Counted from the first letter of the stretch, positions 2,817-21,865 are shown. The stretch: 64,000 nt of DNA from Candidatus Kerfeldbacteria bacterium (GCA_963731735.1 CAVSWO010000002.1:128529-192528); one strand, 5' to 3'. A program made the numbers and translations. Notes: generated by a model not told the origin, from the sequence alone.

Positions 2817-3479
2817 CTAGGAAGATGTTTTATCAGGAACGTAATACGTTCGAACTACGATGGTATAAGGTGAGGAGGTAGTTTCCGTGTCGCTGGTTTC
2901 GGCCGTGTGCGAGAAGCTGACCGATAATACGTCAAATAATCGCTGGCTGGATTCAACCAGCGTCATAAAGCGCTTGAAGGCTTCGTAACTCGTTCCGCCG
3001 GAAACGGTCAGATTAATATCTTCCGTTTTGACATCCAGCGCCGTGGCGGTACCGGCCGGCGCCGTATCCGGCGTCGTCGCGGTGGCCGATGATCCCGAGG
3101 TGCCAATCTGGCCGGATTCATTGACCGAGATAGAGGACAATTCCAAGTTGGCCGTTCGGGCAATATTTTCAAGCGTCAACAACAGGCCCGGGAAATCGGA
3201 TTCGGTCGGCAGGAAGGCGTCCACCTGGGCTAATTGATCCTGCGGTAAGGCGGCTTTAAATTTGGCCACGGATTTCTTGAGTGAGGCCAGATATTCCTGT
3301 TCACTCGACAATTCGGATTCGACGTTCGCTTTTTCCAGGATGCCGGATGTGCGCAGATTCGATATCTTCGTGTCGAGCACTAAGAAATAGCCGCCGACCA
3401 TGACCAGCACCACCAGCACCCAGACCGTCCAGCGGTAATAGTCAGTTAAGAGCGATTGGAGAAAACTTGGGAATTTCAT
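2817..3479 (-). CDS. PilO-like pilus assembly protein (N-terminal TM, coiled coil)
   Basis: 220 aa; TM near N-terminus, predicted coiled-coil region, position after the pilN-like gene; overlaps it by 4 nt. Confidence 0.45.
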   Translation of the reverse strand: MKFPSFLQSLLTDYYRWTVWVLVVLVMVGGYFLVLDTKISNLRTSGILEKANVESELSSEQEYLASLKKSVAKFKAALPQDQLAQVDAFLPTESDFPGLLLTLENIARTANLELSSISVNESGQIGTSGSSATATTPDTAPAGTATALDVKTEDINLTVSGGTSYEAFKRFMTLVESSQRLFDVLSVSFSHTAETSDTETTSSPYTIVVRTYYVPDKTSS

Positions 3480-5425: not shown

Positions 5426-5614
5426 AACGGCGGGTCAGCAAATCGGTGAATCTGGCCGGCCCGAATGTTGAAAAGAAGTCGTGCGAGACCGCTTTAGTAT
5501 GGCACAAAAAATGGTCAAAGTCAAAATAACCGCTACCTGTGGAGAACTTTCCAGGTACAAAAACTCCTTGCGATTGTTCGTTTCGCCTTCTGTCCCGATA
5601 ATGTTACTCGATGC

Positions 5615-8600
5615 TTACGGCCCGGTGCTGACACTACTTGGTAGCACGCCGGCGAAGTCGCGAAAACCTTGCGGCGGATTGGATTGCAGCCGACCGTCGT
5701 TGATGATGACTTCTGACGGCAACGGCGTTTCAACCGTGCCGGCGAAGGTCCGGGCGAAATAGAATTTATGAGCCAGCATTATCCCCCGAACCGTCAACGG
5801 GAAATTGTTTGGTAAATTGCGGGTAACGGTACACTCCGTCGGCGGTGAATCACCATTGTCCGGTTGGCCGGTGCATATCGTTCCGGTCACATAATAATTG
5901 CCGGCCAGCTCGGTCACGCCGTTATCAATGATCAGATTGCCTTTGACAACAACCATCAAGGATGCTAATTGACGGAGAAGCGTTATTGACGGTGATAGAG
6001 AATACACAATATCTTTATCGATCCGCAGGTTACCATTTATAATCAGGGTTCCCGCCCCGCTGACAAAACTGGAACCACTCAAGCCACCGTTAAGAATAGT
6101 GAAACTCCTGTCGATTGTGTAGGTTTGCGTGCCACCCGCCTTACCCGCGACGAACACTTTATCCTGGAGTTTGGTTGTCGAATTACCTGCACCAATCATT
6201 GCATCCACAATGCTCCCACCGCTGTCGCCAAGCGATGTGACTGTTTGACCAAATTTATTAGTCTTATTTGTGGAGTCTGTCACCGTCTCTGCGCCCTGTA
6301 AATCAATCCGGCCGAGCGCGGTTTCAAACAAGTTTTTTTGTGACGCAAACGGAGTAAACGACGCGTTATTTTTTTCGGTGTCATAGGTCGCGACTTGATC
6401 AACGGTCAGCGAGGAGCAAAAATTATTTATCGAGCCGCCGGCCGAAACTACGTAACTGGCGTTACACAAATTGCCAGGCGCCGGCAACGTATCCGGGGCG
6501 CCAATGTTCCCCTGCGAGTAGACATCACCCAGTCGGGTCTGAATATAGCGGCGAGTCCCTTTAATCACATTCCCGAAATTCAACCAGCCGTAATCCGGGC
6601 TCCAGGCATAACCGGAGAATTGTCCGGTGATCGTATCCAGGTTTACCCCGTATTGATCGCATAAGGCGCCGGCGGCGCTACAGGTCGCACCTGTAAAACT
6701 GCACGTCCCACCGTTGCATTGAGTGTCATTCGTGCAAGCGTCGTAGGCATTGGTTGATTCACTCGAGCAGAAAGAGGCCGGCTTACAAGATTCATTCGCC
6801 GTGCACTCCGAATCCACCGTGCAAGTATTTTTCGTGATATCTCCACCACAATATTTCGTACAGCTTGCCGCCTCAGGTTGACAACTCCGCTGGTCCCCAT
6901 CTTGGCAAAAAGCACAAGACAGGTCACCACCGCTTAAGGCACAGGCCTGACAGGCAATCAATGAATACGTACCGCCGATGTTCACTGGCGTTGGTGTATT
7001 AACGGGTTTTCCACGTAAACTAATCCAACCGCGGGAACTATCGCCGTTCGGGTCACTCGAATTGGCCAAGGTCATGAAGCGGCCAACGCCCTGCAATTTT
7101 CCGGTTGTTGCGTCCAGGCAGGCGCCGCCGTTGTCGCAGTAATTGCGTTCCCCAGATCCAGCCTCAAGTTCGGCCGGCGGTGTTCCAATATCATTAGCAT
7201 CAAAGCTCAACCAACCGCCGCCGGCGCAGGCCAGCGAACTGGCATTGTTTTCGTCACACTGCAATCGCGTATTCGGCAGACTTTGCAATTTTGAGCTGCC
7301 GACGCTGGCCCCGCTCGGCAAATCAGCCGAGCCGAACGTACAATCCGCGTCATGTAAACAAATGAAACTTTGATCGTATTCGCAGTGCCCGTAACAATCA
7401 AAATCACGCAAGCAGGCACGTGTATCATCCTCCTGACAGGTGCGGGTGGCTGGATTGCATGATCCGGTCATGGTGTACGTAGTGGCTGGTTGCGGTAAAT
7501 CCGGATCTCGCGCATTGGCGCCCTGGCAGCTGCCGAGAGCGATCGTTTCGTTGTCCGAATTACTGTTTCCGGCCGCGTAATTTTTTCCGAACCAGGCGCG
7601 TCCGCTCAAACGATTATCCTCGAGCGTCAATCCGTAGGCGTCAATTTGCCGCTGGCAAAGGGATACGCTGTTCCCATCCCGTTGATTTAAACAGCTAGTC
7701 GAAATCCAGCCCAACCCGGCATTTTGCCCGCCGTTGGCCGGACTTGCATTGCCGGCCCAGACATAGCCCGAGACGTTGCCGGACACCCGTTGGAGCAACA
7801 AACTGCTCGGCCCGACCGCAAAGGCGTGCTGCTGTCCGATAGCGCTGACCGCATATAATGGATCACTGGTATTAGCGGCAGACTCAACCCGGCTGGAGAG
7901 GCTTAAAAAATTTCTGTCAGAATAAATAATACTAGTTCCATTATCTCCGACGGCCGTTATTTCTGCTCCCACCAGGGAATTCGCTGACGGGCTGTCCACC
8001 TGTTCAACACGGAGATTATCACACCAAACTTTCGCTCCATAGGTCGCTTCGCAGCTAACTTGGAGCTGCATGCCAAAATACCCAATCCGCGGGTTGGAAG
8101 TGGCGCCCTTAATCGGATTGGCGTATTGATTATTTTCCTGGGAAACAACCATTTCAAACGGAATATAGCCGTCGGTCGCGCCCTGGTTGATGGTCCGAAT
8201 TTGCGTCCGATTTTCGAACGCGCAGTCCGGAGCGGTGGCCTGCCCGACGTTACCTCCGACGCATCCAATCGCGATGCCGCCCTGGGGAATGGTTGCGGCC
8301 GGGTTCGGAGCAACGGTACCGGGAAATTCCACCTTGTATTCGCCGGAAATTTTATAGCGAATGCCCGGAATTGTTGAAAGGCGGATGGTGTTCACCGCTG
8401 CAACCGAATGTTTCGTGTTTCCATTTGTTCCATTCGTACAATCGGATATGCTTGAATAGGTGGGTCGTGGTTCAAGCATCAACGCGTAATTGCTTCCCCC
8501 TGACCCAACTTCGGTCGAGATCTGGATTTCTTTGGTACTAATACCGACTTTATTGCTCCCCCCATCGCAACCAGTGCTGCTGAAACCGCCGGCGCCCTCA

Positions 8601-9853
8601 TCAGTAAGGGTCCAAACACTTGGATTCACATATTCACCGGAAGGGTTTGACGATTCCCAAGATTCGAAGTTGCCATTGCGCAAGAGGTTGGATGATGAAC
8701 CCTGTTGAATTGGAATGCTTGAAACATCATGCAAGATGGTCTCGCTGGGAGCGATCTGCGTAAAACCAGCGGCAGATTGTTTCTCACTCAGCCGCCACAA
8801 ACCGTTGCTGGCCGCAACGTAGACCATATTGGCAAGCGGTCCGTTCGTCGAATCAGTAGGATAGTCAGTCGTTTGGACCGTCACCCCGAAGAAACATACT
8901 CCCGAAGCAGAACCGACTTCTGTAACTTGATTGCCGACGACTTTATACAAATGCCCGGATTGAGCACCCGCATTGGTACAGTTTCGATCAAGTTCACCCG
9001 TATTCGATGTCGTGGTGGTGATATAAGCGGTTCGATTTTCCCCAAAAGCGATATCGGTGATATGTTCGGTGCTCGGAATTGGCGAACAAAGTTTTTTCCA
9101 GGTATCCTTCGTATCCGTTATTGAATCATAATATTTGGTATGTTGGAGGAGTAATCCGTTCTTACCCCCTGCTAACATGGGCGTTCGGTAACCTTTAGCC
9201 GCGGCAATCGCGTACAATTCGTTGTCTACCGCGGGATTATTACCTCCCGAACAAGTGGTGTCTTCAAGATATGATGGCAGGGTGGCATTGAGGTCAGGAT
9301 TGGTGGCGGACGTATTTGCATAATCTAGAATAGTGGTCGTTGCTGAACCTGATCCGTCTACATAATTTGTCTGTTTTCCAGCAAACCAAATTTCGGAATT
9401 ACCGCTGCCGGTGTTATATTGCCCGGTGACGGCGTTTTGTTCACCAAGGGTACCGATAGCTGCGGTGACCTGGTTTCCTGAAGAATTAATACGAGTGAGT
9501 GACGTCATCGTTCGCTGCCGCCAACGCTGACCGTCAAACCGGTAGATGCTTCCATCAAAAACGTTTGCTCCGGCTTTGTCTTTATTCTGTCCCACCGCCC
9601 AGGCTTCAAAGAGCTGATTCGAAGTTACGCTAGCTTCTGGGTCGTACGGGTCATTGCGTCTGCTGACTGACCCATCCACCCGGTAATACGAATAAACTCC
9701 CCGAAAATCGGTCGGGGAAAAGTTAGTGGTGGTAATCAGCGGCACAGCTAATTCGGCCATGGTCCGTTGTACGCCCAAGAACACTCCGGTCATGGCAATC
9801 AAAGCGATAATTAGAGAGGCCGGGAATCGGTATCGATGAATCAAACGACGCAT
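5615..9853 (-). CDS. Giant (1412 aa) secreted or cell-surface Cys-rich protein in the pilus operon; candidate pilus-associated adhesin (PilY1-analogous by position only)
   Basis: Intact 4.2-kb ORF; N-terminal basic region plus hydrophobic helix (RYRFPASLIIALIAMTGVFLGV); several Cys-dense segments. Starts 3 nt after the stop of paralog A and is followed by pilM. Confidence 0.7.
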   Translation of the reverse strand: MRRLIHRYRFPASLIIALIAMTGVFLGVQRTMAELAVPLITTTNFSPTDFRGVYSYYRVDGSVSRRNDPYDPEASVTSNQLFEAWAVGQNKDKAGANVFDGSIYRFDGQRWRQRTMTSLTRINSSGNQVTAAIGTLGEQNAVTGQYNTGSGNSEIWFAGKQTNYVDGSGSATTTILDYANTSATNPDLNATLPSYLEDTTCSGGNNPAVDNELYAIAAAKGYRTPMLAGGKNGLLLQHTKYYDSITDTKDTWKKLCSPIPSTEHITDIAFGENRTAYITTTTSNTGELDRNCTNAGAQSGHLYKVVGNQVTEVGSASGVCFFGVTVQTTDYPTDSTNGPLANMVYVAASNGLWRLSEKQSAAGFTQIAPSETILHDVSSIPIQQGSSSNLLRNGNFESWESSNPSGEYVNPSVWTLTDEGAGGFSSTGCDGGSNKVGISTKEIQISTEVGSGGSNYALMLEPRPTYSSISDCTNGTNGNTKHSVAAVNTIRLSTIPGIRYKISGEYKVEFPGTVAPNPAATIPQGGIAIGCVGGNVGQATAPDCAFENRTQIRTINQGATDGYIPFEMVVSQENNQYANPIKGATSNPRIGYFGMQLQVSCEATYGAKVWCDNLRVEQVDSPSANSLVGAEITAVGDNGTSIIYSDRNFLSLSSRVESAANTSDPLYAVSAIGQQHAFAVGPSSLLLQRVSGNVSGYVWAGNASPANGGQNAGLGWISTSCLNQRDGNSVSLCQRQIDAYGLTLEDNRLSGRAWFGKNYAAGNSNSDNETIALGSCQGANARDPDLPQPATTYTMTGSCNPATRTCQEDDTRACLRDFDCYGHCEYDQSFICLHDADCTFGSADLPSGASVGSSKLQSLPNTRLQCDENNASSLACAGGGWLSFDANDIGTPPAELEAGSGERNYCDNGGACLDATTGKLQGVGRFMTLANSSDPNGDSSRGWISLRGKPVNTPTPVNIGGTYSLIACQACALSGGDLSCAFCQDGDQRSCQPEAASCTKYCGGDITKNTCTVDSECTANESCKPASFCSSESTNAYDACTNDTQCNGGTCSFTGATCSAAGALCDQYGVNLDTITGQFSGYAWSPDYGWLNFGNVIKGTRRYIQTRLGDVYSQGNIGAPDTLPAPGNLCNASYVVSAGGSINNFCSSLTVDQVATYDTEKNNASFTPFASQKNLFETALGRIDLQGAETVTDSTNKTNKFGQTVTSLGDSGGSIVDAMIGAGNSTTKLQDKVFVAGKAGGTQTYTIDRSFTILNGGLSGSSFVSGAGTLIINGNLRIDKDIVYSLSPSITLLRQLASLMVVVKGNLIIDNGVTELAGNYYVTGTICTGQPDNGDSPPTECTVTRNLPNNFPLTVRGIMLAHKFYFARTFAGTVETPLPSEVIINDGRLQSNPPQGFRDFAGVLPSSVSTGP

Positions 9854-9856
9854 AAT

Positions 9857-10672
9857 CTAGGGATATAAACCAATACACCCGGTGGCGCTGCTGCCATTGG
9901 CGCAAAAACAACGGGGGGTCGGATCAACCGCGGAACAATCGTTTAGGCCACCCCCGTTCACGTCATCACCCACCCGAATTGGGGTGCCATCCAGTATTCC
10001 GGCATCCAGGGTTGAACCGATGCCATCATTGCCGCTGTACCACACCGGTAATTGGGTGCTGTCGTAAGCGGATTTCACGGTTAACTGGCCATTGACCTGT
10101 AAATCCCCGCCAATTTCAATCGCATCGTTTGAACTCAATGCGTAGCCGGAAGGGTTGATGTTTGAGATATAGAGCGCGGCCGCCGGATTATCAGCCACCA
10201 AACTGACGGTTGGGTTGGTGCTTGAACCGCCGGTCAGCTGGACTCCCCAACTTTTATCAACCGGAAGTAAACGCAGGCCCAGCAGTTCCCAGGTTCCACC
10301 GCCGCCATCAGCCGGCCAAGTGTTCCGACACGCCCCGCCTAAGCAGACACTGCCGGGTACATCCACATTCACCGCAGCGCCCGAACGGCTAAACTTGACC
10401 GAGAGGTTGGCGGCCAAAGACGAGGGGCGCAGATAAATATCCGACGATGATGAGGCGATGTCCTGCCCGGTGGCGCCCAGTTCAAAATAGCTGTCACCCG
10501 TGCCGCCGGGAACAATCGCCACCACCCCTTGATAGGCTGCCGCTCGGGTGGTCGCACCGGGTGACACCGGCGCGGCCATCGCCGAGGTTGCCAACAATCC
10601 GCCCGCCATCAGCAAGGCGATACCGGCGGTCAACCAGTTCATCCATCGAGAATTGTTGCGGACGGTTTGCAT
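9857..10672 (-). CDS. Secreted Cys-loop-motif protein, paralog A of a six-gene tandem family
   Basis: ORF 9857..10795; most likely start at Met42 (10672), 2 nt after paralog B stop. Sec-type signal MNWLTAGIALLMAGGLLATSAMA. Motif VCLGGACRNTWP. Confidence 0.6.
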   Translation of the reverse strand: MQTVRNNSRWMNWLTAGIALLMAGGLLATSAMAAPVSPGATTRAAAYQGVVAIVPGGTGDSYFELGATGQDIASSSSDIYLRPSSLAANLSVKFSRSGAAVNVDVPGSVCLGGACRNTWPADGGGGTWELLGLRLLPVDKSWGVQLTGGSSTNPTVSLVADNPAAALYISNINPSGYALSSNDAIEIGGDLQVNGQLTVKSAYDSTQLPVWYSGNDGIGSTLDAGILDGTPIRVGDDVNGGGLNDCSAVDPTPRCFCANGSSATGCIGLYP

Positions 10673-10674
10673 AG

Positions 10675-11544
10675 TTAAATATGATTCCACATTGGCGCGC
10701 ATTTCTTTCCGATATCGGTGGCTACACACAAGCAGGCCAACGTTTTGTCTCCACCCGGATTTGGTTGGCCAAACGGACCGAGAATGCTGGCGCATGATGC
10801 AGCGGGTTCCAGCGTGACATTCTCAAAGTCGCCAAATGGTGACACGTAGCGGTCGGCATCAAGTCCTGAACCTTCACCTTGGTGCGGCGCAATACCCGCC
10901 GCCGGATATCCCGGATGCCAAACCTCGCTTCCATTCACGTAAATTTTTCTTCCCACTACCGTCTCCCCATCCGAAAATACGTTGCCGTCGGCTTGCATGG
11001 CTTGGGATAATCCGCTAGTGTCCCGATTAATAACCTGTAATCCGTAATACCCCGAACCATGAACATCCAGAGCGGGTCCGTTCTGGACACGCTGGCTTGA
11101 GGTTCCAACGCCGAGCGCGTAGGTAGCCGTATTGGGTTCCAGGTAGCCACTGTTGACCTGCCAATAATTGCCGCCGCCGGCCGTCGGCCAGACATCCCGG
11201 CAATCCTGGCTGCCGCTCCCGTTTAAACAGAGTTTCCCGGTTATCAAGACGTCTTCGGCGCTCCCATTTTTGAAAAAACGGATGCCTCGAGATTCCGGAA
11301 GCTGGGGACGAAAATAGAGGTCGCCGGTTGAGCCAATGTCCCGCCCGTTGTTACCGATCTCCATGGCTTGGCTGCCGTCCAATATCGTCAGGACTCCGCC
11401 ATAGACGCCAAGTTTTGTAAACGGCGCGCTGTTCGGCCCGTTCGTAATTGGCCCGGCCTGGGCTGGCAACATAGTAACCAGCGCGATGACGGCGATCAGG
11501 CCGAGAGCTAACCAGGTGTGAGATGTGAATCGGAGACGCAACAT
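10675..11544 (-). CDS. Secreted Cys-loop-motif protein, paralog B
   Basis: 289 aa; signal MLRLRFTSHTWLALGLIAVIALVTMLPAQA; mature N-terminus GPITNGPNSAPFTKLGVYGGV parallels paralog C; motif LCLNGSGSQDCRDVWP. Confidence 0.65.
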   Translation of the reverse strand: MLRLRFTSHTWLALGLIAVIALVTMLPAQAGPITNGPNSAPFTKLGVYGGVLTILDGSQAMEIGNNGRDIGSTGDLYFRPQLPESRGIRFFKNGSAEDVLITGKLCLNGSGSQDCRDVWPTAGGGNYWQVNSGYLEPNTATYALGVGTSSQRVQNGPALDVHGSGYYGLQVINRDTSGLSQAMQADGNVFSDGETVVGRKIYVNGSEVWHPGYPAAGIAPHQGEGSGLDADRYVSPFGDFENVTLEPAASCASILGPFGQPNPGGDKTLACLCVATDIGKKCAPMWNHI

Positions 11545-11545
11545 A

Positions 11546-13045
11546 CTAGTTAAAATTTTCCGTACAAATATCAGCCCCTTGTCCGGCTACCGAATTATAA
11601 AATGTTTTATCATTCGTTAATCGACAATCACACGAGCACGTAAAATTATTCGTATTCCCATCATACGAGCAAGCGGATTGCCCGCAGCTGCCGGTATTGT
11701 AATGAATAGAGCTGCCGGTAAACGAACAGCTGGGGTCTTGGGTCCCCTGACATTTAAATCTCGCGGAGCATTCGGTATTGCAGCGACTGTTATCGCAACT
11801 TATCGGTAACCCCTGATACAAAACCATATACTGTAATAAATCACCGTACAGGCAAAAATCCGTCCCCGGCGGGCCGCAATCATCATTATAGGTACAGCTG
11901 GTGCTGTTATTATTTGCACAATGACCTTGGCCAACATCAACACCAGGTTCGGGATCTTTGGCACATATTTGGGCCTGCGCCGAACAGAGTTGGGAACAAG
12001 TCCCGCCGGGACAGTCCCCTGCGCTGGAACAAGTTCCGCCGGGACAGTCCCCTGCGCTGGAACAAGTTCCGCCGGCATTGCTGCCCCCCACACAAAGTTG
12101 GGAACAAGTTCCGCCGGCATTGCTGCCCCCCACACAAAGTTGATTGTCGGGGGTGTGCAGACAAAGGTATTCAAGATTTGATCCGGTGTTAGTTTCAATA
12201 TCTTTCCAGAATAAATCGTGATAATTTCCGGCCGCGTGGCTGGCTTTGGTGAAGGGTAAATTCGTCGTTCCATCAAACGTGTCGGCATCGACGCCTCCAT
12301 AATTATCATTTTCTGCATTCCAGGGGACCACCGCATAGGTATAGCCGTAGGAATACAAGGTTGGATAGCGAACCTGGTAATTCCCGTTCACTAGGGTGCT
12401 GCCGCCGACGTAATTGCCGCTGCCGGGATCATACCCGGTGGTAATGCGCTTGGTTACTTGGACGGCCGAGCCGGCATAATTGGCGTAGATTTCTCCGGCT
12501 TGGCCGCTGGAGGACGGGATCGGGTTGGTAAATGTACCAATCCGGATGCCGTTATTCCCGTCGGTCGGCTGCAAGTTCGACGGAGAGCCGGCAACTTGCC
12601 AATTCGGGTCGCTAGCACCGCCAGCTGACCAGGCGCTCCGGCAATTTGATAATGTTCCTAAACAAATTTGGCCGCTCGGGATACTGAAATTCGCTTTGCC
12701 GGACCCGCTGTCTTTGTAGATGTAGGCAATGTTATTCGGAAAGGTGTCCGAGGGACTCGTATACGTTGGCTGCATTGCTCCCGGGCGCAGGAAAATATCT
12801 CCGGTTGAAGCAATCTCTCGTCCGGCGTTTCCGAACTCCATCACGCTGTCCGTCGCACCGCCGGGAATGATCGTGATTACACCTTGGTAGACGCCGATCT
12901 TAGTGAAGGGCTCACCATACTGATTGGTTAACGGTCCGGCCTGGGCGGTTCGGGTAATCAATCCTGCCACGATGACAACCAGTCCAGCCACTGTCACAAT
13001 GCTTGGCCAACTCCGGTATGAAAATATGGTGCGTTTCCGGGGCAT
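11546..13045 (-). CDS. Secreted Cys-loop-motif protein, paralog C, containing in-frame tandem repeats
   Basis: ORF 11546..13111; probable start at internal Met (13045), giving signal MPRKRTIFSYRSWPSIVTVAGLVVIVAGLITRTAQA. Mature GPLTNQYGEPFTKIGVYQGV; motif ICLGTLSNCRSAWS; C-terminal Cys-rich region. Confidence 0.65.
   Translation of the reverse strand: MPRKRTIFSYRSWPSIVTVAGLVVIVAGLITRTAQAGPLTNQYGEPFTKIGVYQGVITIIPGGATDSVMEFGNAGREIASTGDIFLRPGAMQPTYTSPSDTFPNNIAYIYKDSGSGKANFSIPSGQICLGTLSNCRSAWSAGGASDPNWQVAGSPSNLQPTDGNNGIRIGTFTNPIPSSSGQAGEIYANYAGSAVQVTKRITTGYDPGSGNYVGGSTLVNGNYQVRYPTLYSYGYTYAVVPWNAENDNYGGVDADTFDGTTNLPFTKASHAAGNYHDLFWKDIETNTGSNLEYLCLHTPDNQLCVGGSNAGGTCSQLCVGGSNAGGTCSSAGDCPGGTCSSAGDCPGGTCSQLCSAQAQICAKDPEPGVDVGQGHCANNNSTSCTYNDDCGPPGTDFCLYGDLLQYMVLYQGLPISCDNSRCNTECSARFKCQGTQDPSCSFTGSSIHYNTGSCGQSACSYDGNTNNFTCSCDCRLTNDKTFYNSVAGQGADICTENFN
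11993..12142. repeat. In-frame tandem direct repeats inside paralog C: 2 x 33 nt (11993-12025, 12026-12058; 1 mismatch) followed by 2 x 42 nt (12059-12100, 12101-12142; identical)
   Basis: Read directly in the sequence. Units begin ggaacaagt(c/t)ccgccgg...; they encode SAGDCPGGTCS x2 and QLCVGGSNAGGTCS x2 on the minus strand. Confidence 0.9.
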
Positions 13046-13046
13046 G

Positions 13047-13934
13047 CTATTGGCAATCAAAACTAAATTGATCTTCCTGAATTTCCGGCCAACAGAGTCC
13101 GTCGTTATCATAAATTGGGCTAATGGAAACTTTCATAGGTCCGCCCGCTACGACTGATTCAAATTGCCAGGCCGCATTGGCTACGCCGTTCCCCGTCCCG
13201 GTCCAGGCGAGCCCGCCTTCAACCGGTAATCCTCCGACTGCAATCGGTTGGATCAACGGCGGATTGGCAGTTTGGACTTTGACGTACGGGTCAACCGTAA
13301 TTGATCCAAGATCGCTCCAAGCGGAAATACATTGCCCGCTCGGACTCTCGCCCGCGCCTTTACCGCGTTTTGTAATACCGTTCAAGCAGAGTAAACCAGG
13401 ATTGGAATTCTTATCTTGTTCAACGCTCAAGATGCCAGAAAAACGCGCCGCGAAAGCCCCGCGGTCGAGGTCATCGGTCGCGAAGATGCCCACTTGTGTA
13501 CCGAGTACTCCGATAGCCGGATCGGCAATCACCGTTGCAGCCGGCGTACCGCCTGAACCTTGGAGTGCCGCGTACCCGGTTTGTCGATAGGGTGTATAGG
13601 AATCTATGAGTGATGGATCGTCAACGAGTTGATCAGGATTAACCTTGACCAAGGCACCGCCGACACTGCCACCTAAGTCGCTCCAGGCGGTGATACAGTT
13701 GCCGTTTGGATCCGAACCGTTCAGACACAGCGCGGCTTGATTGACCGTGTCACCGATTACCAAAGAACCAAGCTTAACTTGTGTGTTGCTTGAGGTATCG
13801 AGAAAGGTTGCGCTCCGTCCGCCCGGCGGTGTTGAACTGGGTTCCACGTAGATCGCAATCGCCGGCGCGGCAATCGCCAAACCCAAAATGATCAAGATCG
13901 CCAGGCTGGTGGATGGTACACGCAAGGTCAACAT
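13047..13934 (-). CDS. Secreted Cys-loop-motif protein, paralog D (two motif copies)
   Basis: 295 aa; signal MLTLRVPSTSLAILIILGLAIAAPAIA; mature IYVEPSSTPPGG; motifs ALCLNGSDPNGNCITAWSDLG and LLCLNGITKRGKGAGESPSGQCISAWSDLG. Confidence 0.65.
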   Translation of the reverse strand: MLTLRVPSTSLAILIILGLAIAAPAIAIYVEPSSTPPGGRSATFLDTSSNTQVKLGSLVIGDTVNQAALCLNGSDPNGNCITAWSDLGGSVGGALVKVNPDQLVDDPSLIDSYTPYRQTGYAALQGSGGTPAATVIADPAIGVLGTQVGIFATDDLDRGAFAARFSGILSVEQDKNSNPGLLCLNGITKRGKGAGESPSGQCISAWSDLGSITVDPYVKVQTANPPLIQPIAVGGLPVEGGLAWTGTGNGVANAAWQFESVVAGGPMKVSISPIYDNDGLCWPEIQEDQFSFDCQ

Positions 13935-13935
13935 A

Positions 13936-15594
13936 TTATGGAGTTAAGGTTCCGCCCCCTCCGCCGCCTGAGGAGAACGTGGCGGTCACTGATTTATCAC
14001 CGTTCATGAGTATACTACAGCTCTGACCCGAGCAGGCGCCGCTCCAGCCGGTAAATGTATAGCTGGGGAGAACAATTGTATCTAACGTTTCCGTAATCCC
14101 ATACTCATACACGACTTGCGTGCTGGTACATGACGTGCTGCAGACAAAGCTGTTATTGTTGCCCAGGACACCGCCGGCACTGGTCGGGCCGGACTTGGTT
14201 ACATTCAGGTGCACCACCTTGATGGAATCGGTGGCGGCGTTCGAGTAGCGGGGGAAATGGTTACCTTGGTAGGCGCGATAATAATAGGTTGTACCGGATA
14301 CCACGTTGCTGTCGCCGGAGATACTGACCGATGATCCGCCGTTAACGCTGCCGGCGTAGATGATTGTGCTGCCGCCGACCGTCATGCCGGTGTAATACAG
14401 CCGACCATTCTGCGGCTCGAATGGATCGCTGGCATCGGTACTGCGGGTTACCAGGAGTTGAACGGTCCCGCTCGGGCTCTGCGAACCGGTCGTGATGGAG
14501 AATTTTACTTCATTCTCTAAGGTATAGAGTGAAAGCGTCGGCTGACCGACGGTCGCACAATCAATCGGGCAGTTCCCCTCCGAGGCGCAAAAGCCGTCGC
14601 CGCAGGTACACGGCGCCGAGCCGCAGGATGGTGTGGTGGAAAACCCATACGGATCACCGGCCAGAATCGAACCAACCGATCCGACGCCGTTGCTTGAATC
14701 GGTAACCGTTGAGGCAGTCAAGGATACACCGCCGTATTGTTTCGAGGCGGTGCCATAACTAAACGGCGCGCCGGCCGTAGATTTGCGTAAACGCACATAG
14801 ATAGTGCCTGAGCCGGTTAAATCCTCCCAGGCTGAAATACAACTTGATCCCCCGGTTCCGTTTAGGCACAACTGCCCCGAAGAATATCCGTTATACGGAT
14901 AGGTGTTGCCGGAAATCAGGAGGTTCCCGGCAAATCGGCCGGCCACATTATTGGCATTGCCGCCGTTGGTCGCGTAGATTCCATACAGATTAGACTGCTC
15001 GCCGGGTGACCCGGAATTCGGGGCGGTACAGTCAGAACTTCCGGTACAGGATGATTGTTGATCCCCCGAACAAAAACATGATTCTTGGGTTGACTGGCTT
15101 CCGCAAGGAACCTCATTAGCGCTCGGGTCCAGTTCAACGCACTGGTGCGGCGCCGCAATCACGGCTGAATAATTTTGCTGATCACCGGTTGAGGTAACGC
15201 GCGCGAAGCCGGCCTGGGTATCATAATTGCCATAGCTATTCGGGTTACTGCTGGGTGCGGCTTTATTCAGACGCACGAATTGTCCGCCCAAGGCCGAATC
15301 AATTTGATCCCAGCTACTGATACAGTTTGTCGAATCTCCGGTCCCAACGCCGGCTGTCGGATTTAAACATAAAACGTTACTGCCGCTGCCAATGGTCAGG
15401 TCGCCGGCTTTTTTTTGCGCGCTATCCGAAGCGTTCAAAGGTGGCGCGATTTGACCGTCGGGCGGGTTGTCGGGACGTGGAATATACGAATAGGCGGGTT
15501 GGGTGACCCAAAAGATGCCGCCAAACAACGCGACCAAGAGCACGAAAATACTGGGTAAACGTAGTCGGGTCATGGGCTGCAATCGCTCGGACAC
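13936..15594 (-). CDS. Secreted Cys-loop-motif protein, paralog E (552 aa, two motif copies)
   Basis: Signal MTRLRLPSIFVLLVALFGGIFWV; mature AYSYIPRPDNPPDG; motifs VLCLNPTAGVGTGDSTNCISSWDQ and QLCLNGTGGSSCISAWEDL. Confidence 0.65.
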   Translation of the reverse strand: MSERLQPMTRLRLPSIFVLLVALFGGIFWVTQPAYSYIPRPDNPPDGQIAPPLNASDSAQKKAGDLTIGSGSNVLCLNPTAGVGTGDSTNCISSWDQIDSALGGQFVRLNKAAPSSNPNSYGNYDTQAGFARVTSTGDQQNYSAVIAAPHQCVELDPSANEVPCGSQSTQESCFCSGDQQSSCTGSSDCTAPNSGSPGEQSNLYGIYATNGGNANNVAGRFAGNLLISGNTYPYNGYSSGQLCLNGTGGSSCISAWEDLTGSGTIYVRLRKSTAGAPFSYGTASKQYGGVSLTASTVTDSSNGVGSVGSILAGDPYGFSTTPSCGSAPCTCGDGFCASEGNCPIDCATVGQPTLSLYTLENEVKFSITTGSQSPSGTVQLLVTRSTDASDPFEPQNGRLYYTGMTVGGSTIIYAGSVNGGSSVSISGDSNVVSGTTYYYRAYQGNHFPRYSNAATDSIKVVHLNVTKSGPTSAGGVLGNNNSFVCSTSCTSTQVVYEYGITETLDTIVLPSYTFTGWSGACSGQSCSILMNGDKSVTATFSSGGGGGGTLTP

Positions 15595-16490
15595 TGCGTC
15601 TGTTCGTTATTTTCCGGTGAACAAATTCCGTCTCCGCATGTGTATGAAGCTGGGGTGCTGGCCGCCGGGTGGCCGGCTACCAGGGAACCCACAATAATTG
15701 GGCCGTTGATCCCGATGTTACCATCCTGCGGGGTATAGACCTGCCCTGACTGCAGCTCTAAGACATCATTCGGAACGCCGCCCACGACCTCGGCCCAACT
15801 TTGTTTACAGTCATCATTCAAACAAATAGACGTTTGCCCGCTTTCCGGCAGGATGACAGTTTTACCGGCCAATTGGCCAGCATAATATGAAGAGGTGGAG
15901 CTAGCGGCTTGGATGCCGGTTGAATTATCGATGCTGTTGGCCTGGGCCAGCAGTGAAATAAACTGGAATTTAGGCGAGTTACCGTCCGCCTGGAAGGTAA
16001 TAAAGCCGGAGTCGGCGGTGGCGCCGGCTTGTTGACTCGAATTATAAAGGTGTAAATAGTTACCGCTGGCTTGCGACGCGATATCGCTCCAGGAAGAAAT
16101 GCAATTGGTTGGATCGGTCGTCCAGAGATTCGCATCGGCATTCAAACACAGCCGCGCACAGTTGCCGTTTTCACTCGTCGTGCAATGAGCTAGCTGGCCG
16201 CCCCTTTCACCGAGAATAAGCGAACCGGCCTTCGTTTGGGCGGTAGTTGATCCATTTAAAAATTCTAGGGTGCTGCCACCCGTCGGAACGCCGTCTGGGG
16301 GTGGTCCATTTGGTTCAACGTAAGCTTGCGCACCGGCCACCAGCGGGAAGATAAGCGCCCCGGCCAACAATACGGCGGCCAGGGAAAAACGGGAACGGGA
16401 TTGGATTCGATGTTTCTTTTTAGGCGTTTTCACGACAAGCAATCTACAAAACGACCGCTTGAGTATACCAAATTTCGCTTGCCAATGCAA
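15570..16490 (-). CDS. Secreted Cys-loop-motif protein, paralog F (first gene of the operon; exact start uncertain)
   Basis: 306 aa ORF; signal-like SRSRFSLAAVLLAGALIFPLVAGAQA; mature AYVEPNGPPPDG; motifs ARLCLNADANLWTTDPTNCISSWSDI and SICLNDDCKQSW. Confidence 0.6.
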   Translation of the reverse strand: MHWQAKFGILKRSFCRLLVVKTPKKKHRIQSRSRFSLAAVLLAGALIFPLVAGAQAYVEPNGPPPDGVPTGGSTLEFLNGSTTAQTKAGSLILGERGGQLAHCTTSENGNCARLCLNADANLWTTDPTNCISSWSDIASQASGNYLHLYNSSQQAGATADSGFITFQADGNSPKFQFISLLAQANSIDNSTGIQAASSTSSYYAGQLAGKTVILPESGQTSICLNDDCKQSWAEVVGGVPNDVLELQSGQVYTPQDGNIGINGPIIVGSLVAGHPAASTPASYTCGDGICSPENNEQTQCPSDCSP

Positions 16491-16560: not shown

Positions 16561-17025
16561 ATGCTCCGTATGGAAAACCCCCTGTTTCCCGATCAACACC
16601 AAAAAGACGTCCGTCGCGTCGCGGCCTATAGCCTAGTGGTTGCAATCGGACTGATGATTGGCGTTGGTTTGTATTTGCATTTTCAGACTCCCGCCGTCGT
16701 TCCAACCCCCGCCCCCAAGACGCCGGTGGCCGCTACACCCAGCTATTTTACCGACTTTTACGGCTTAATCCGCCAAGTCACAGATACCGGGCTGGTTTTA
16801 GAGGCCACCATCGTCCAACCCTCCGGACAACGCGTAGCCAAGCAGTATACCGTCCTGGTGAATGATAAAACCGCGGTCCAACAACTCTCCACCGACGGTC
16901 AAGCTACCGATTTACCGCTGCATGATCTGCAGGTAGGAGAATTAGTCCAGGCGTTTGGCACTGAAAATTTGGGTCCGATCGATCATTTCGCCGCAACCCG
17001 AATTATTTTAGTTAAAAATTCTTAA
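16561..17025 (+). CDS. Hypothetical membrane-anchored protein
   Basis: 154 aa; one N-terminal TM (VAAYSLVVAIGLMIGVGLYL), Pro/Thr-rich linker; divergent from the pilus operon. Confidence 0.5.
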   Translation: MLRMENPLFPDQHQKDVRRVAAYSLVVAIGLMIGVGLYLHFQTPAVVPTPAPKTPVAATPSYFTDFYGLIRQVTDTGLVLEATIVQPSGQRVAKQYTVLVNDKTAVQQLSTDGQATDLPLHDLQVGELVQAFGTENLGPIDHFAATRIILVKNS

Positions 17026-17043
17026 TCACGAAGGGAACGACTT

Positions 17044-17601
17044 ATGAGCATACTTACTTGGGTGATTGTCGGGGTTATTGCCTTGGCCTTGCTGTGGCTG
17101 ATGGGCGCGTACAATGGCCTAGTCCGGCTCCGCAATCAAACCGATGAGGCCTGGTCGGATATTGACGTCCAGCTTAAACGACGCTTTGACCTGATCCCCA
17201 ACCTGGTTGAAACCGTCAAAGGCTACGCCAGTCACGAAAAAGAAGTCTTTGAAAAAGTTACCGAGGCTCGAGCGGCCGCGATGAATGCCCAAGGACCGGA
17301 AGCCAAGGGGCAGGCCGATAATATGTTGAGCGGCGCCTTAAAGTCCCTGTTCGCCGTGGCTGAAGCCTATCCGCAATTAAAAGCCAACGAAAACTTCGCC
17401 AAGCTCCAGGATGAATTGTCTGACACGGAGAATAAAATCCAGGCTGCCCGCCGCTTTTACAACGGCAATGTCCGGGATTTCAACACCCGAATGCAACAAT
17501 TCCCGACCAACTTGATCGCCAGTTCGTTTGGCTTCAGCCGACGAGAGTTCTTCGCCCTCGATAACGAAGCGGCTAAGGAACCGGTGGCGGTAAAATTCTA
17601 G
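17044..17601 (+). CDS. lemA: LemA family protein
   Basis: 185 aa; N-terminal TM and a LemA-typical sequence (NGLVRLRNQTDEAWSDIDVQLKRRFDLIPNLVETVKGYASHEKEVFE...). Confidence 0.8.
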   Translation: MSILTWVIVGVIALALLWLMGAYNGLVRLRNQTDEAWSDIDVQLKRRFDLIPNLVETVKGYASHEKEVFEKVTEARAAAMNAQGPEAKGQADNMLSGALKSLFAVAEAYPQLKANENFAKLQDELSDTENKIQAARRFYNGNVRDFNTRMQQFPTNLIASSFGFSRREFFALDNEAAKEPVAVKF

Positions 17602-17603
17602 CT

Positions 17604-18260
17604 ATGGCGGCATCCGGTCTCCCCGCTTTTGCGGAATTGTTTGAGACGAGCTGGAAACGCTACCAACGGGAATTCCAAACGCTGGTCACCATTGCCCTGA
17701 TCGCCAATGCGGGCACAATTATTTTTGCCTTGGCCCGGACATCCGTTATGTTGACCGGCCTGCTTGGTTTGGCCAGTCTGGTCCTGTCAATTTGGGGTAT
17801 CTTTGCGCTCTATGCCTATGTGATGCTGCCGAATGTCAAAACGGTTGGACAGGCCTACCGCAGCGTCCAAAGTTTTTTTCTGGATGGGATCGTGACCGGA
17901 TTGGTGTATGGGTTGCTGGTGGTGGCCGGATTGATCCTACTGATTGGGCCCGGTATTTATTGGGGAGTGCTGTATGGCTTCGCCGTTTATGTAGTGATCA
18001 AAGAACGTTTACCGCTGGGACAGGCGCTGAGCCGCTCGAAAGCCCTGGTGACCGGTCGCTGGTGGAATATCTTTTGGAAGGTCGCGGTCATTTTGATTTT
18101 TACCGCCGCCGTCCAAAGCTTGCCGGGCATTGGTTTTCCGGCCACCTCGCAACTGGGTAATTTGATTGACGCGGTGATGTCGGCCTTGGTCACGCCTTTG
18201 ACGGTCATCTTTATTGCCAATCTCTACCAGGCGCTAGCGGCCGATCGTCCCGCGAAGTAA
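17604..18260 (+). CDS. Hypothetical polytopic membrane protein
   Basis: 218 aa; 5-6 hydrophobic helices; sits between lemA and htpX. Confidence 0.5.
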   Translation: MAASGLPAFAELFETSWKRYQREFQTLVTIALIANAGTIIFALARTSVMLTGLLGLASLVLSIWGIFALYAYVMLPNVKTVGQAYRSVQSFFLDGIVTGLVYGLLVVAGLILLIGPGIYWGVLYGFAVYVVIKERLPLGQALSRSKALVTGRWWNIFWKVAVILIFTAAVQSLPGIGFPATSQLGNLIDAVMSALVTPLTVIFIANLYQALAADRPAK

Positions 18261-18263
18261 TCC

Positions 18264-19178
18264 ATGGCCACCACCTACCAAGCAATTGCGTCGAATAAGC
18301 GGCGTTCGTTATTCCTGATTCTGGTTTTTATTGTGATCATCGGACTGGCCGGTTGGGCGTTCAGCCAGTGGCTGGATGTGGGGAATATCGGTATCGTTTT
18401 CGCCGTGCTGCTGGCCGTCGGCATGTCCCTGGGCGGCTACTATGGCGGTGACAAGGTAGCCTTAGCCGCCTCTGGCGCGCGCGGACCGATCACCCAGGAT
18501 GATAATCCCTATCTTTATCGATTGGTTGAGAATCTCTGCATCGCCAACGGCCAACCGCTCCCAAAAATCTACCTGATGGAAGACCCGGCGATTAACGCTT
18601 TTGCCACCGGTCGAGATCCGCAGCGGGCGTCGATCGCGGTCACCACCGGGGCGATTGAAAAACTCGAAAACGAGGAGCTTGAAGGTGTCTTAGCGCATGA
18701 GCTGAGCCATATCAAAAATTTTGACATACGGTTTATGACGCTGGTAACGGTCTTGGCCGGGGTCTTGATACTGTTGGCTGATTTCTTCTGGCGGGCACAG
18801 TGGTTCGGCGGTCGACGCAGCGGCAACCGTTCGAATAACCAGGCCCAGGGGATTTTGATGATCATCGGGTTAGTTCTGCTGATTTTGGCGCCGATCATTG
18901 GACGCTTGATTCAGTTTGCGGTCTCGCGTCGTCGAGAATTTTTGGCCGACGCTTCGGGGGCATTACTGACGCGCTATCCGGAAGGCCTGGCTTCGGCCTT
19001 ACAAAAAATTGAAACTGGCAATCGCCAGCCAATGGCGCATGCGTCAAATGCCACCGCTCATTTATTTTTCAGTAATCCATTTGGTCCCGTCACCAAGGGC
19101 TTGTCGCGATTATTTATGACGCACCCGCCAATTCCGGAACGGGTGGCCGCCTTGCGGGCAATGGGCAACATTCGGTAA
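18264..19178 (+). CDS. htpX: Zinc metalloprotease HtpX (peptidase M48)
   Basis: 304 aa; HELSHIKNFD (HExxH) motif, multiple TM helices, M48-type C-terminal region. Confidence 0.8.
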   Translation: MATTYQAIASNKRRSLFLILVFIVIIGLAGWAFSQWLDVGNIGIVFAVLLAVGMSLGGYYGGDKVALAASGARGPITQDDNPYLYRLVENLCIANGQPLPKIYLMEDPAINAFATGRDPQRASIAVTTGAIEKLENEELEGVLAHELSHIKNFDIRFMTLVTVLAGVLILLADFFWRAQWFGGRRSGNRSNNQAQGILMIIGLVLLILAPIIGRLIQFAVSRRREFLADASGALLTRYPEGLASALQKIETGNRQPMAHASNATAHLFFSNPFGPVTKGLSRLFMTHPPIPERVAALRAMGNIR

Positions 19179-19275
19179 CAACAGCCCCTGTATCACAAAA
19201 TTATAAGCCGAGACAAATTGGCAAAAGCCCTGATCCGTGTAACCGAGTCGTGTGATTTGTCCTTCCTCGGCAGGG

Positions 19276-19304
19276 TTGACAAACGTGTTTACAGATACTA
19301 CAAT
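19276..19304 (+). promoter_or_regulatory. Sigma70-type promoter upstream of clpC: TTGACA (19276-19281), 17-nt spacer, TACAAT (19299-19304)
   Basis: Read directly in the sequence: ttgacaaacgtgtttacagatactacaat, about 12 nt upstream of the clpC ATG at 19316. Confidence 0.6.
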
Positions 19305-19315
19305 CTGTCGTAAGC

Positions 19316-21865
19316 ATGGACGATCTGAAACCAGAAATTCGGAATAAATTTACGGCCCACCTCCGGTCGGCGCTGCAGTACGCGGCTGAGCTTTCGGTTG
19401 AGCTAAAAAACAGTTATGTCAATCCGGAACATCTCTTATTCGGCTTAGCCGAAACGAAAGGCGGGGTGGCCTACGAAATTTTACGCAAATGTGGGGTCAA
19501 ACTCGATACCTTGCGAGATTTGATCAGCGTTCGCAATGAACCAGTCCTCAAACCCGGCCAAACCTTGAGCCGCGATGATTTAAAATTCTCGCTGCCGGCC
19601 AAGCGCGCTCTGGAAAAATCGGTCCTGGTAGCCGCCAATTATGAACATAAGTACGTCGGGACTGAACATCTCTTTTGGGGTTTGCTGGAAATAAACGACG
19701 CGACCCTGGAACAGGTTATGAAGGAGAATCAAATTAATGTGCCGGAAGCCCGGCGACAGCTGCAAGCAGTCCTGAAAAACACCACTCGGTTTCCCGACAT
19801 TTCCGGATTTTTTGATCAACCGAAGGGCATGCCGGATGATGCGGTGGTGGCTCCCAGCCTGCCGGGACGCGGACGCAATGACAAGGCGCCCGCCTTGGAA
19901 TTCTTTACCACCGATCTGACCAACCCGAAAACCCAGCTCTCAATTGATCCGGTCATCGGCCGGGCCGATGAAATTGAACGGTTGGTGCATATTTTAAGCC
20001 GCCGGACCAAGAATAATCCGGTTTTGATTGGCGATCCCGGAGTCGGGAAAACGGCAATTGTCGAAGGCCTGGCCAAGCGGATCGTGGATGGTCAAGTACC
20101 GGAAACATTGCAGCATAAACGCATATTATCGCTCGATTTAGGCTTAGTAGTGGCCGGTACGATTTATCGGGGTGAGTTTGAATCGCGGATCAAACAAATA
20201 CTCGAAGAGATCAAAGAGGATCCGAACATCATGCTGTTTATTGATGAACTGCATACCATCATCGGCGCCGGCTCGGCCTCCGGTTCAATGGATGCCGCGA
20301 ATATGTTGAAGCCGGCCCTGGCCAAGGGACAAATTCGAGCGATCGGCGCCACCACCATGGAAGAGTACAAGAAACATATTGAAACCGATCCGGCCCTGGA
20401 ACGCCGTTTCCAAGCGATCGTGGTCCAAGAACCGTCAGCGGCCGAAACCGTGGAAATCCTCAAAGGCTTGCGTCACAATTATGAACACTATCACGGCGTC
20501 CGTATCACCGATCAGGCGATCGAGGCGGCTGTGCGCTTTTCGACACGGTATATCCAGGACCGTTTTCTGCCCGACAAGGCGATCGACTTAATTGACGAGG
20601 CGGCTTCGAAAGTCAAAGTTAAACACGGCGGTTCAGCCCTCAGCAAGCAACTCCGGAAAATTGAAGCCGAGCTGCATCAGGTTCATCTAGCCAAACATGA
20701 GGCCATTCAAGCCGAGCAATTTGATACCGCCCTGGAACTGAAGCAACGCCAGGCCGGGCTGGAAAATAAACTTCAGAAAATGAAAGATCGCGAAGCCACC
20801 GCCCCGGTTCAATATGTCGGAACTATTGGTGATCAAGAAATCGCGGAAGTGATTTCCCGGATGACCGGCGTGCCATTACAGGATTTGGTCAAACAGGAAC
20901 GCGACCGGCTACTCAACCTTGAAGGCTTACTCAAAAAACGTATCGTCGGACAGGATGAGGCGATTCAAGCCATCGCAAATTTCGTGCGGCGTTCACGAGT
21001 CGGGCTTGGCAATCCCAATCGCCCGATTGGATCATTCTTGTTCTTGGGCCCATCCGGCGTCGGAAAAACCGAAACCGCCAAAGAAATCGCCCGCACGGTT
21101 TTTGAGGATGAGCAGGCCTTGATTCGAATCGACATGTCGGAGTTTCAGGAAAGTTTTAACGTCAGTAAACTGATTGGCGCGCCGGCCGGGTACGTTGGAT
21201 ACAAAGAGGGCGCCAAGCTGACTGACGCCGTTAAACGCAAACCGTATTCGGTGGTGTTGTTTGATGAACTTGAGAAGGCCCATCCGGATGTTTTCAATCT
21301 CTTGCTCCAAGTCCTGGATGAGGGCCACTTGACCGATGGCGTTGGGAAAACCGTCAATTTCAAGAACACCATCATCATTATGACCTCAAACATCGGTCTG
21401 CATAGTTTCAATCAAGTCCAGTCGATCGGCTTTGAAACAAATGATGCGGCCGCCAAGCAGAAGTTGGAAGATCGCTATCAGGCCCTGCGGAGCAAGGTTA
21501 TGTCGGATGTGGAACGTAGTTTTCGGCCAGAATTTCTAAACCGGATAGATAAAATTGTGGTTTATCGTCCGCTTGATCAGGCGGCGGTTGAAAAAATCGT
21601 GGATCTGCACATTGCTGATCTCCAACAGCGGCTCGAATCCCACCAGCTGAAAATTCAGCTGACCGCCAAAGCCCGCACCCATATTGCCGAGCGCGGATTC
21701 AGTCCGGATTTCGGGGCCCGCGCGGTTAGTCGCTTAATTCAAGAGGAAATTGAAAACCCGTTGGCTGGGATGCTCCTGCACGGGCAAATTAAAGCCGGCC
21801 AAAAAGTCCGGGTAACGGTGAAAAAACAAGGCATCGTCCTGGAAAAAGTCCAACCCAAAGGATAA
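19316..21865 (+). CDS. clpC: ATP-dependent Clp protease ATP-binding subunit ClpC (class III AAA+ chaperone)
   Basis: 849 aa; two Clp_N repeats, AAA-1 ([15 protein letters not shown]), UVR-like linker, AAA-2 ([15 protein letters not shown]), ClpB_D2-small C-terminus. Confidence 0.85.

Follow-up and report, generated by a model that had tools for sequence, protein, structure and literature searches.

How episymbionts belonging to the Candidate Phyla Radiation (CPR), or Patescibacteria, recognize their hosts and stay attached to them is an open question, for which type IV pili are the main suspects. In type IVa pili (T4aP), the PilY1/PilC proteins, which are large non-pilin proteins with Sec-type leaders encoded by pilus-linked genes, are thought to be tip adhesins. 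TcpF, which belongs to a type IVb pilus (T4bP), is Sec-exported and hooks onto the tip pilin by its mature N-terminus (PMC9565799). Pilus specificity parts of CPR bacteria are known only for oral Saccharibacteria, where operon-encoded proteins that carry no PilD-type signal have been put forward as adhesins of the pilus (PMC11623550). Kerfeldbacteria, a groundwater lineage, have been reported to be unusually strongly attached to their hosts (PMC7906910). Here, we analyzed a 64,000-nucleotide (nt) stretch of Candidatus Kerfeldbacteria DNA (hereafter, the window), in which positions 9857-16490 are filled by six consecutive minus-strand open reading frames (ORFs), named g6 to g1 in transcription order. 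These encode exported proteins of two families, A and B, and are followed by the gene of a 1412-amino-acid (aa) exported protein, termed BIG, and by type IV pilus genes.

Non-pilin Sec-exported proteins genetically tied to a type IV pilus are a known kind, represented here by two unnamed families. On the basis of genomic context and composition, we tentatively read the six genes as encoding Sec-exported, disulfide-stabilized subunits that serve the pilus system outside the cell as accessory parts or adhesins, and would put the chance of this at somewhat short of even. The likeness to described systems appears to be functional only, not one of homology. By position, BIG and the A and B proteins fit the PilY1/PilC pattern, but they are seven proteins rather than one, have no adjacent minor pilins and, as detailed below, yielded neither a propeller or vWA domain nor a PDB match. 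PilX1 and PilX2 of the Saccharibacteria TM7x are likewise CPR proteins encoded at a pilus locus, lack a PilD-type signal and are proposed to be host-binding adhesins (PMC11623550); compared by description only, they differ in having a lollipop-like pilin architecture with lectin-like or beta-propeller domains, whereas A and B show neither a pilin-like N-terminal helix nor detectable similarity to the operon pilin. TcpF and CofJ, which dock on T4bP tip pilins, are also operon-encoded and Sec-exported, with a conserved mature N-terminus containing an aromatic residue as a possible docking signal (PMC9565799), but PDB profile searches revealed no sequence similarity to them, and the present locus encodes six distinct subunits. 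Finally, GspH-I-J-K and FimU-PilV-W-X resemble the array as fixed sets of distinct, anciently diverged small subunits encoded in conserved order with a filament machine; those, however, are true class III pilins, and A and B lack the class III signal, the pilin conservation pattern and a profile match to the operon pilin.

The six-gene array and its two protein families

The ORFs are separated by very short junctions (an ATGA overlap for g6/g5; 1 nt for g5/g4, g4/g3 and g3/g2; 2 nt for g2/g1), and g1 is spaced 3 nt from the BIG gene. The ORF calls and short junctions bore out the initial annotation, which had described six tightly coupled genes whose products carry Sec-type leaders and a cysteine loop (Cys-loop). 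The 287-aa form of g6 corresponds to P0004 in the protein homology search. The regular expression C-[LIV]-[NGH]-x(1-16)-C-x(1-2)-[STDNAV]-x-W, run on the six-frame translation of the window, gave eight matches, all eight within the six array genes; a ninth, slightly deviating copy (CLNDDCKQSW) is the second loop of g6. Each A protein carries two copies and each B protein one. In the family A alignment (71 sequences), both Cys and the Trp of loop 1 were invariant and those of loop 2 conserved in at least 90%, as was each of the three residues in the family B loop, while the spacing between the two Cys ranged from 2 to about 20 residues. The shared motif, C-L-[NG]-x(n)-C-x-x-x-W, is therefore real: it is confined to the six genes within the 64 kb and conserved in relatives, far beyond chance. 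An N-glycosylation sequon in "CLNGS/T" was considered and dropped, because the +2 residue in the aligned loops is often neither Ser nor Thr.

The six proteins had been taken for paralogs falling into two subgroups by mature N-terminus. The subgroups proved sound, with family A comprising g6, g5 and g4, and family B comprising g3, g2 and g1, the last a diverged member (APVSPG...AAYQGV). Paralogy was significant within A (BLASTP E 1e-9 to 1e-17) and within B (E 1e-16 to 1e-21), but A against B gave E >= 0.003 in the loop region only. Comparison of the full A and B profiles by hhalign produced an alignment over the leader only, and that of their loop modules a probability of 24-65% over 20-22 columns. 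Six-fold paralogy was thus dropped, since A and B have in common, apart from the leader, only a loop of roughly 20 residues. The two Cys-loop modules within family A matched each other with 98% probability (E 7e-14), thereby indicating that family A proteins carry an internal duplication. The family A hidden Markov model (HMM) scored g4, g5 and g6 at 2e-70 to 7e-96, and the family B model scored g1, g2 and g3 at 4e-58 to 2e-87.

Family A proteins consist of a leader, the mature N-terminal block [YFW]-x-E-P..PPxG..LN.S...Q.K.G.L.IG, Cys-loop module 1, a spacer, the segment YA..F.G.V.I followed by Cys-loop module 2 (LCLN-x(n)-C-I-x-x-W type), and CGDGxC...CPxDC. Within the family A proteins of the array, the FN3-like domain, the InlB B-repeat and the Gly-rich end occur in A2 only. 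Family B proteins have a leader ending in AxA, a highly conserved 50-residue block GPITNG..PFTKLGVYQGVLSI.P...MEIGN.GRDIASTGD.YFRPG (its start also reads GPITNG..PFTKLGVYQGV), one LC-x(n)-C-x-x-x-W loop, a variable beta-rich region, which in some members contains VW..GNDG.GSGLDA..LDG, and a Cys-rich tail that is very long in B1. The B1 tail includes two tandem DNA repeats, of 33 nt x 2.5 (98%) and 42 nt x 2.0 (100%), which double the Cys-rich peptides SSAGDCPGGTC and SQLCVGGSNAGGTC; such perfect in-frame repeats are a sign of recent expansion.

All six leaders have a basic start, 15-20 hydrophobic residues and a small-x-small end, and, judging from these features, would be Sec-type leaders cut after the small-x-small site. 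The mature proteins contain even numbers of Cys (10, 20, 6, 28, 6 and 6), have a pI of 4.1-4.9 and consist to 42-52% of Gly, Ser, Thr, Asn and Ala, a composition that fits an extracellular, disulfide-bonded location. A class III prepilin motif (G↓FxxxE, with a short basic leader, Gly at -1, Glu at +5 and then about 20 hydrophobic residues), the site that a prepilin peptidase would cut, was not found anywhere in the window by a six-frame regular expression. The hydrophobic stretch of A and B precedes, rather than follows, the conserved cut site, and per-column information is lowest in the leader (about 1.4-1.5 bits), while conservation in family B peaks over the first 50 mature residues (2.7-3.6 bits). 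In pilins, by contrast, the N-terminal hydrophobic helix is the best conserved part. Related operons have, behind pilC at their distal end, the gene of a canonical KKGFTLIELLVVIAIIG pilin of about 190 aa (KKGFTLIELLVVIAIIGILSAIGL...). It is the sole class III protein found in each of the related 24-kb loci, and hhalign of A and B against this pilin gave probabilities of 0.5-3%. Considering the missing motif, the poorly conserved hydrophobic segment and the lack of a profile match to the operon pilin, we abandoned cryptic pilins as a candidate and find the earlier suggestion of a non-canonical pilin class unsupported.

Related loci and the pilus operon

A search of species-representative genomes with the BIG alignment returned five loci, three in two Candidatus Kerfeldbacteria metagenome-assembled genomes (MAGs) and two in MAGs labelled "uncultured Gammaproteobacteria", whose loci match the Kerfeldbacteria loci in content. 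The contigs under this label, L007 (CAZFGG010000001.1) and L009 (CAYGGC010000005.1), carry the same locus, of CPR type, and their PilB and PilM share 75-80% identity with those of the window; the label is probably wrong. The few named family members are recorded as "hypothetical protein, Patescibacteria group bacterium". A word-indexed search picked up only 2-5 family A relatives and 24 for family B, but the impression of near-uniqueness was corrected by exhaustive HMMER searching, in which the A profile gave 755 matches at E < 1e-3 and 137 representatives at E < 1e-30. About 110 of these 137 (and about 130 of 150 among the matches listed) are covered over most of their length, at 260-820 aa; the very large proteins in the list match through the FN3-like C-terminal part only.

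The gene order recurs in at least 10 related loci: a block of ClpB, M48 peptidase, LemA and a protein of about 155 aa diverges from the A/B array, which is followed by BIG, pilM, pilN, pilO, the small gene, pilB, the response regulator, pilT, pilC and the pilin gene. This order is present in each locus of sufficient length to reveal it: it holds in L002, L003, L006, L007, L009, L013 and L015, and is partly visible in L004, L008 and L011. Since it persists although A, B and BIG of the window share only 27-41% identity with their relatives, the proposed genetic tie to a type IV pilus operon holds. Identities were 37-59% for PilN, PilO and the 91-aa protein and 66-82% for PilB, PilM and the response regulator, so that A, B and BIG evolve faster than the pilus machine proteins, PilN and PilO included. 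By HMM class, the array reads AAABBB in the window and L013, ABBBAA in L007, L009 and L015, AAAB in L006, BAAA in L008, AAB in L003 and AAA in L002. Copy number is thus nearly constant for A, with three genes in nine of the 10 loci of the first classification (two in L003) and in L015, but ranges from 0 to 3 for B among the classified loci.

The best BLASTP matches of each window gene were its positional orthologs in other genomes; paralogs within the window fell outside the top nine for family A genes and ranked fifth or lower for family B. Each gene is therefore closest to its positional ortholog, which indicates six distinct, long-separated subunits (A1-A3 and B1-B3) forming an old and fixed set. 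Recent tandem diversification was rejected on this ground, and the "diversifying family" of the initial annotation gave way to two families of long standing. Family A orthologs do carry variable additions (FN3, B-repeat, Hint and 300-aa inserts). In some A1 orthologs (P0006, P0007; L004 380-2116), about 300 aa are inserted after the conserved N-terminus, ahead of the first Cys-loop. Pfam detected nothing in this insert, which indicates that the family A scaffold accepts grafted domains. Many A2 orthologs end in a Hint/PT-HINT domain (P0042, P0049, P0054 [L007 6495-8585], P0082 and P0070), which starts with G↓CF.(A/G)GT and ends with (L/Y)VHN plus 3-9 residues, with no nucleophile after the Asn. 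The g5 product aligns with P0054 up to the Hint junction and stops there with its Gly-rich end, and other Hint-less orthologs also have a Gly-rich end. The pattern at this junction suggests that in some lineages the A2 C-terminus undergoes autocleavage or is ligated.

The genes downstream of the array were identified as listed in Table 1, in agreement with the earlier claim that the array lies directly upstream of a Cys-rich protein and pilus genes. That claim had gone on to place the array in the slot of minor-pilin/PilY1 genes. The position upstream of pilM stands, but the notion of a fixed classical slot is loose, because in P. aeruginosa the T4aP genes pilMNOPQ lie apart from the minor-pilin/pilY1 operon. 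Neither pilP nor pilQ was seen among the operon genes of the window and the relatives. An LPxTG-like reading of the BIG C-terminus (LPNTVxxGP, alignment consensus) was dropped, as the protein stops there with no membrane anchor after it. The divergent block is kept beside the array in those related loci whose sequence reaches that side, with identities of 72-81% for LemA and 61-67% for the M48 peptidase; its 218-aa membrane protein is not conserved.

Table 1. Features of the window. Bounds of the array genes use the most plausible starts (g1 10672, g3 13045, g5 15573, g6 16433); ↓, predicted cut site.
Feature	Coordinates	Strand	Description
g6	15570-16433	-	family A, subunit A1, 287 aa from GTG 16433 (ORF reaches 16490); leader ...AGAQA↓YVEPNGPPPDG; Cys-loops 16089-16148, 15795-15824; C-terminal CGDGxC...CPxDC 15579-15638
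g5	13936-15573	-	family A, subunit A2, 545 aa; Cys-loops 15310-15369, 14827-14868; CGDG 14557-14604; C-terminal part, in order: FN3-like domain, InlB B-repeat (Pfam Flg_new_2, 3.7e-5), Gly-rich end GGGGGGTLTP (13936-13965)
g4	13047-13934	-	family A, subunit A3, 295 aa; Cys-loops 13683-13727, 13317-13388; degenerate CGDG 13053-13109
g3	11546-13045	-	family B, subunit B1, 499 aa; leader ...RTAQA↓GPLTNQYGEPFTKIGVYQGV; Cys-loop 12629-12664; long C-terminal extension, 28 Cys, perfect in-frame tandem repeats 11993-12142
g2	10675-11544	-	family B, subunit B2, 289 aa; leader ...LPAQA↓GPITNGPNSAPFTKLGVYGGV; Cys-loop 11188-11229; VWHPG...GSGLDAD 10843-10923
g1	9857-10672	-	family B, subunit B3, 271 aa from ATG 10672; leader ...TSAMA↓APVSPG; Cys-loop 10316-10345; VWYSGNDGIGSTLDAGILDG motif 9986-10045
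BIG	5615-9853	-	1412-aa exported protein, 44 Cys; always after array and before pilM
BIG-pilM gap	5426-5614		190 nt
sigma-70-like site	5524-5496		coding strand, within BIG-pilM gap
pilM	4361-5425	-	PilM_2, 4e-44
PilN-like bitopic protein	3476-4351	-	assigned by position and membrane topology only
pilO-like	2817-3479	-	weak PilO match, 8.8e-5
91-aa protein	2539-2814	-	single-pass membrane protein, conserved in operon
pilB	781-2535	-	extension ATPase; T2SSE 4e-130, plus MshEN
response regulator	362-769	-	receiver only, 2e-22
pilT	1-360	-	N-terminus, cut by window edge; relatives continue with pilC and canonical pilin
divergent block	16561-21865	+	154-aa membrane protein, LemA, 218-aa membrane protein, M48 peptidase, ClpB
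second surface-machine cluster	46653-63070	-	includes a 1006-aa protein (right-handed beta-helix, Big_7, T4SS_pilin) and large unannotated ORFs (927 aa, 395 aa)
TraG/VirB4-like P-loop ATPase	53189-55135		within second cluster
LOOT RNA (RF03000)	43390-43511	+	full-length match, intergenic, 76.5 bits (gathering 46.4)
tRNA genes	44352-44442, 44479-44552	-	near LOOT RNA
low-GC segments	26000-32000, 36000-44000		GC 0.43-0.47
ThiF fusion	39196-41559		787 aa, ThiF plus 7TM histidine-kinase N-region

Elsewhere in the window, the second surface-machine cluster looks like a type IV secretion-like system. The GC content is about 0.52 outside the two low-GC segments, the second of which contains, besides the ThiF fusion, a 507-aa ORF without a Pfam match.

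Fold searches and alternative readings

Searches of Pfam, NCBIfam and PHROGs with the six proteins and BIG gave no match to the core regions, the sole domain match being the InlB B-repeat in the g5 C-terminus. BIG itself had no Pfam, NCBIfam or PDB match, and only chance-level matches came back when PDB sequences were searched with the profiles of A, B and BIG or with B-motif peptides. The initial annotation had not recognized the motif as a named family, and no known non-pilus family in these databases claims the core regions. A PilY1-type beta-propeller or vWA domain was not detected by Pfam in the six proteins, BIG or eight BIG orthologs; one BIG sequence had a sub-threshold match to the HVO_0234 propeller (E 0.008). 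AlphaFold2 models were of low confidence: that of g2 (25 sequences) had a mean predicted local distance difference test (pLDDT) score of 56.6 and was all-beta, with only residues 40-100 moderately confident, and that of g4 (71 sequences) had a pLDDT of 62.1 and was mostly coil. Neither contained a long alpha-1 helix or an alpha-beta roll. Low model quality in spite of a reasonable alignment would be compatible with proteins that form obligate oligomers, but does not demonstrate this.

The short motif of family B, as present in g1, matched Cellulophaga phage tail proteins (E 0.03) and a PHROG "tail protein" (E 0.03) weakly. The resemblance to phage tail or tail-fibre proteins lies in W..GNDG.GSGLDA..LDG, but only about 25-40 residues match, at E values of 0.03-1 that are not statistically secure, and the Cys-loop has no phage match. 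No relative turned up in viral contigs scanned with patterns from the B N-terminal peptides, and tblastn of the Cys-loop module against phages gave chance matches only. We regard the phage resemblance as a weak lead and nothing more.

The accessory or adhesin reading draws on the conserved gene order, the fixed subunit set, the extracellular character of the products, their conservation pattern, the internal duplication and size of family A, the adhesin-type additions, the tight junctions, the lone class III pilin per related locus and the published precedents. Several observations weigh against it. Apart from the BIG-pilM gap, no sizeable intergenic stretch interrupts the gene string. This gap contains, on the coding strand, a sigma-70-like site (TTGACT-17-CATACT, with an upstream TG) that could be an internal promoter; terminator-like matches in the same scan were at chance level. 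Given the gap and the promoter-like site, the array and the pil genes may be two transcription units. Family B also occurs outside pilus operons in other Patescibacteria, as two adjacent genes beside Suf and SOD genes (L014 8190-11101) and as isolated genes (L016 10001-11353 and L017 10001-12124), and one of these non-operon proteins, of 477 aa, contains a pair of Cys-loops with an LQQVL..GN motif behind each. The related operon L002 is without any B gene, and comes from the same sample as L017. Finally, other parts of the genome could hold minor-pilin genes.

An alternative that we consider unlikely, yet the best of those weighed, is that the A and B proteins build a fixed envelope collar, conduit or anchor (wall or S-layer) for the pilus machine, which could substitute for PilP/PilQ-type parts in a bacterium lacking both outer membrane and secretin, and are not on the fibre. 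Fixed, anciently diverged subunits in a conserved order are typical of structural complexes, the operon lacks visible pilP and pilQ genes, all products are exported, and their disulfide-rich, acidic, Gly/Ser/Thr-rich make-up would suit an envelope matrix. However, A, B and BIG evolve faster than the alignment proteins PilN and PilO, the number of B genes is not constant, and the variable grafted domains of A orthologs and the fresh g3 repeats are more typical of exposed, host-facing proteins.

A view that we hold to be distinctly unlikely makes A and B ordinary proteins of the cell surface, or secreted ones, such as adhesins or S-layer-associated proteins. Their location, and perhaps their regulation, would be all that links them to the pilus genes, and they would make no contact with the pilus. 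The solitary B genes in unrelated contexts, the gap with its promoter-like site before pilM and the lack of similarity to any pilus protein in the searches made all favor this view. Against it, this operon is the sole context in which family A and BIG were found, in loci diverged to 25-40% identity, and synteny that persists in tiny genomes prone to rearrangement speaks for a functional link.

We give still less credence, and regard as quite improbable, the idea that A and B are soluble cargo of a pilus acting as a type II secretion piston, with the mature N-termini as the signal, as for TcpF and CofJ. It would account for operon-encoded proteins with Sec-type leaders and conserved mature N-termini (with an aromatic start in A and highly conserved in B), and it has a precedent (PMC9565799). 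Six fixed subunits with a 1412-aa partner, however, resemble a complex more than cargo, and neither TcpF nor CofJ came up as a homolog in the PDB profile searches. Vibrio and enterotoxigenic Escherichia coli (ETEC), the hosts of TcpF and CofJ, are diderm, unlike Patescibacteria, which are not known to have an outer membrane. The MAG records of the relatives assign them to Patescibacteria, in which Sec export alone would free a soluble protein, so that a piston would be unneeded.

Very improbable, lastly, is a role of A and B as non-canonical pilins polymerized into the fibre, which would fit the lack of minor-pilin genes within about 24 kb in related pilus operons and the N-terminal hydrophobic helix of each protein, but conflicts with the missing class III site, the poorly conserved hydrophobic segment before the cut site, the low hhalign probabilities against the operon pilin, the canonical pilin of the relatives and the low-confidence models, which show neither a long alpha-1 helix nor an alpha-beta roll.

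Proposed role in host attachment

Returning to the accessory or adhesin reading, we propose the following course of events. The seven genes of the array and BIG, arranged in a row as described, would be translationally coupled and expressed with or beside pilMNO-pilB-response regulator-pilT. Sec would export each product, and signal peptidase I would cleave it behind the small-x-small site, which would bare a family-specific mature N-terminus ([YFW]-x-E-P...PPxG...Q.K.G.L.IG in A and the GPITNG block in B). Outside the membrane, the conserved Cys pairs, each followed by its Trp, would close the variable loops by disulfide bonds. The subunits are probably hetero-oligomeric through their conserved mature N-terminal modules, and the three distinct subunits of each family may assemble in this way into a hetero-oligomer that sits on the pilus (tip or base) or on the cell surface and works with BIG. 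The fast-evolving C-terminal parts (the FN3-like domain, the InlB B-repeat and the Cys-rich extension) would then be displayed to the host cell. An adhesin or pilus-tip role is what we infer from this picture.

A more specific form of this proposal, which we put forward as speculation and hold to be improbable, is that A, B and BIG make up a pilin-independent pilus-tip complex for priming or adhesion, with 3 + 3 + 1 Sec-exported subunits. In one CPR lineage it would take the place of the minor-pilin/PilY1 module. Its subunits would dock by the mature N-termini, and it would set the choice of host, with A2 activated or ligated at its C-terminus by a terminal Hint domain in many genomes.

As a whole, A and B are candidate parts of the apparatus by which an ultrasmall CPR episymbiont holds host cells, and the locus offers a testable candidate set for a groundwater CPR lineage, namely two unnamed exported families and a giant partner. 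If they are borne on the pilus, a type IV pilus can bear a multi-subunit module made without pilins. If they are not, A and B are still widespread, unnamed surface-protein modules of CPR bacteria that are worth defining.

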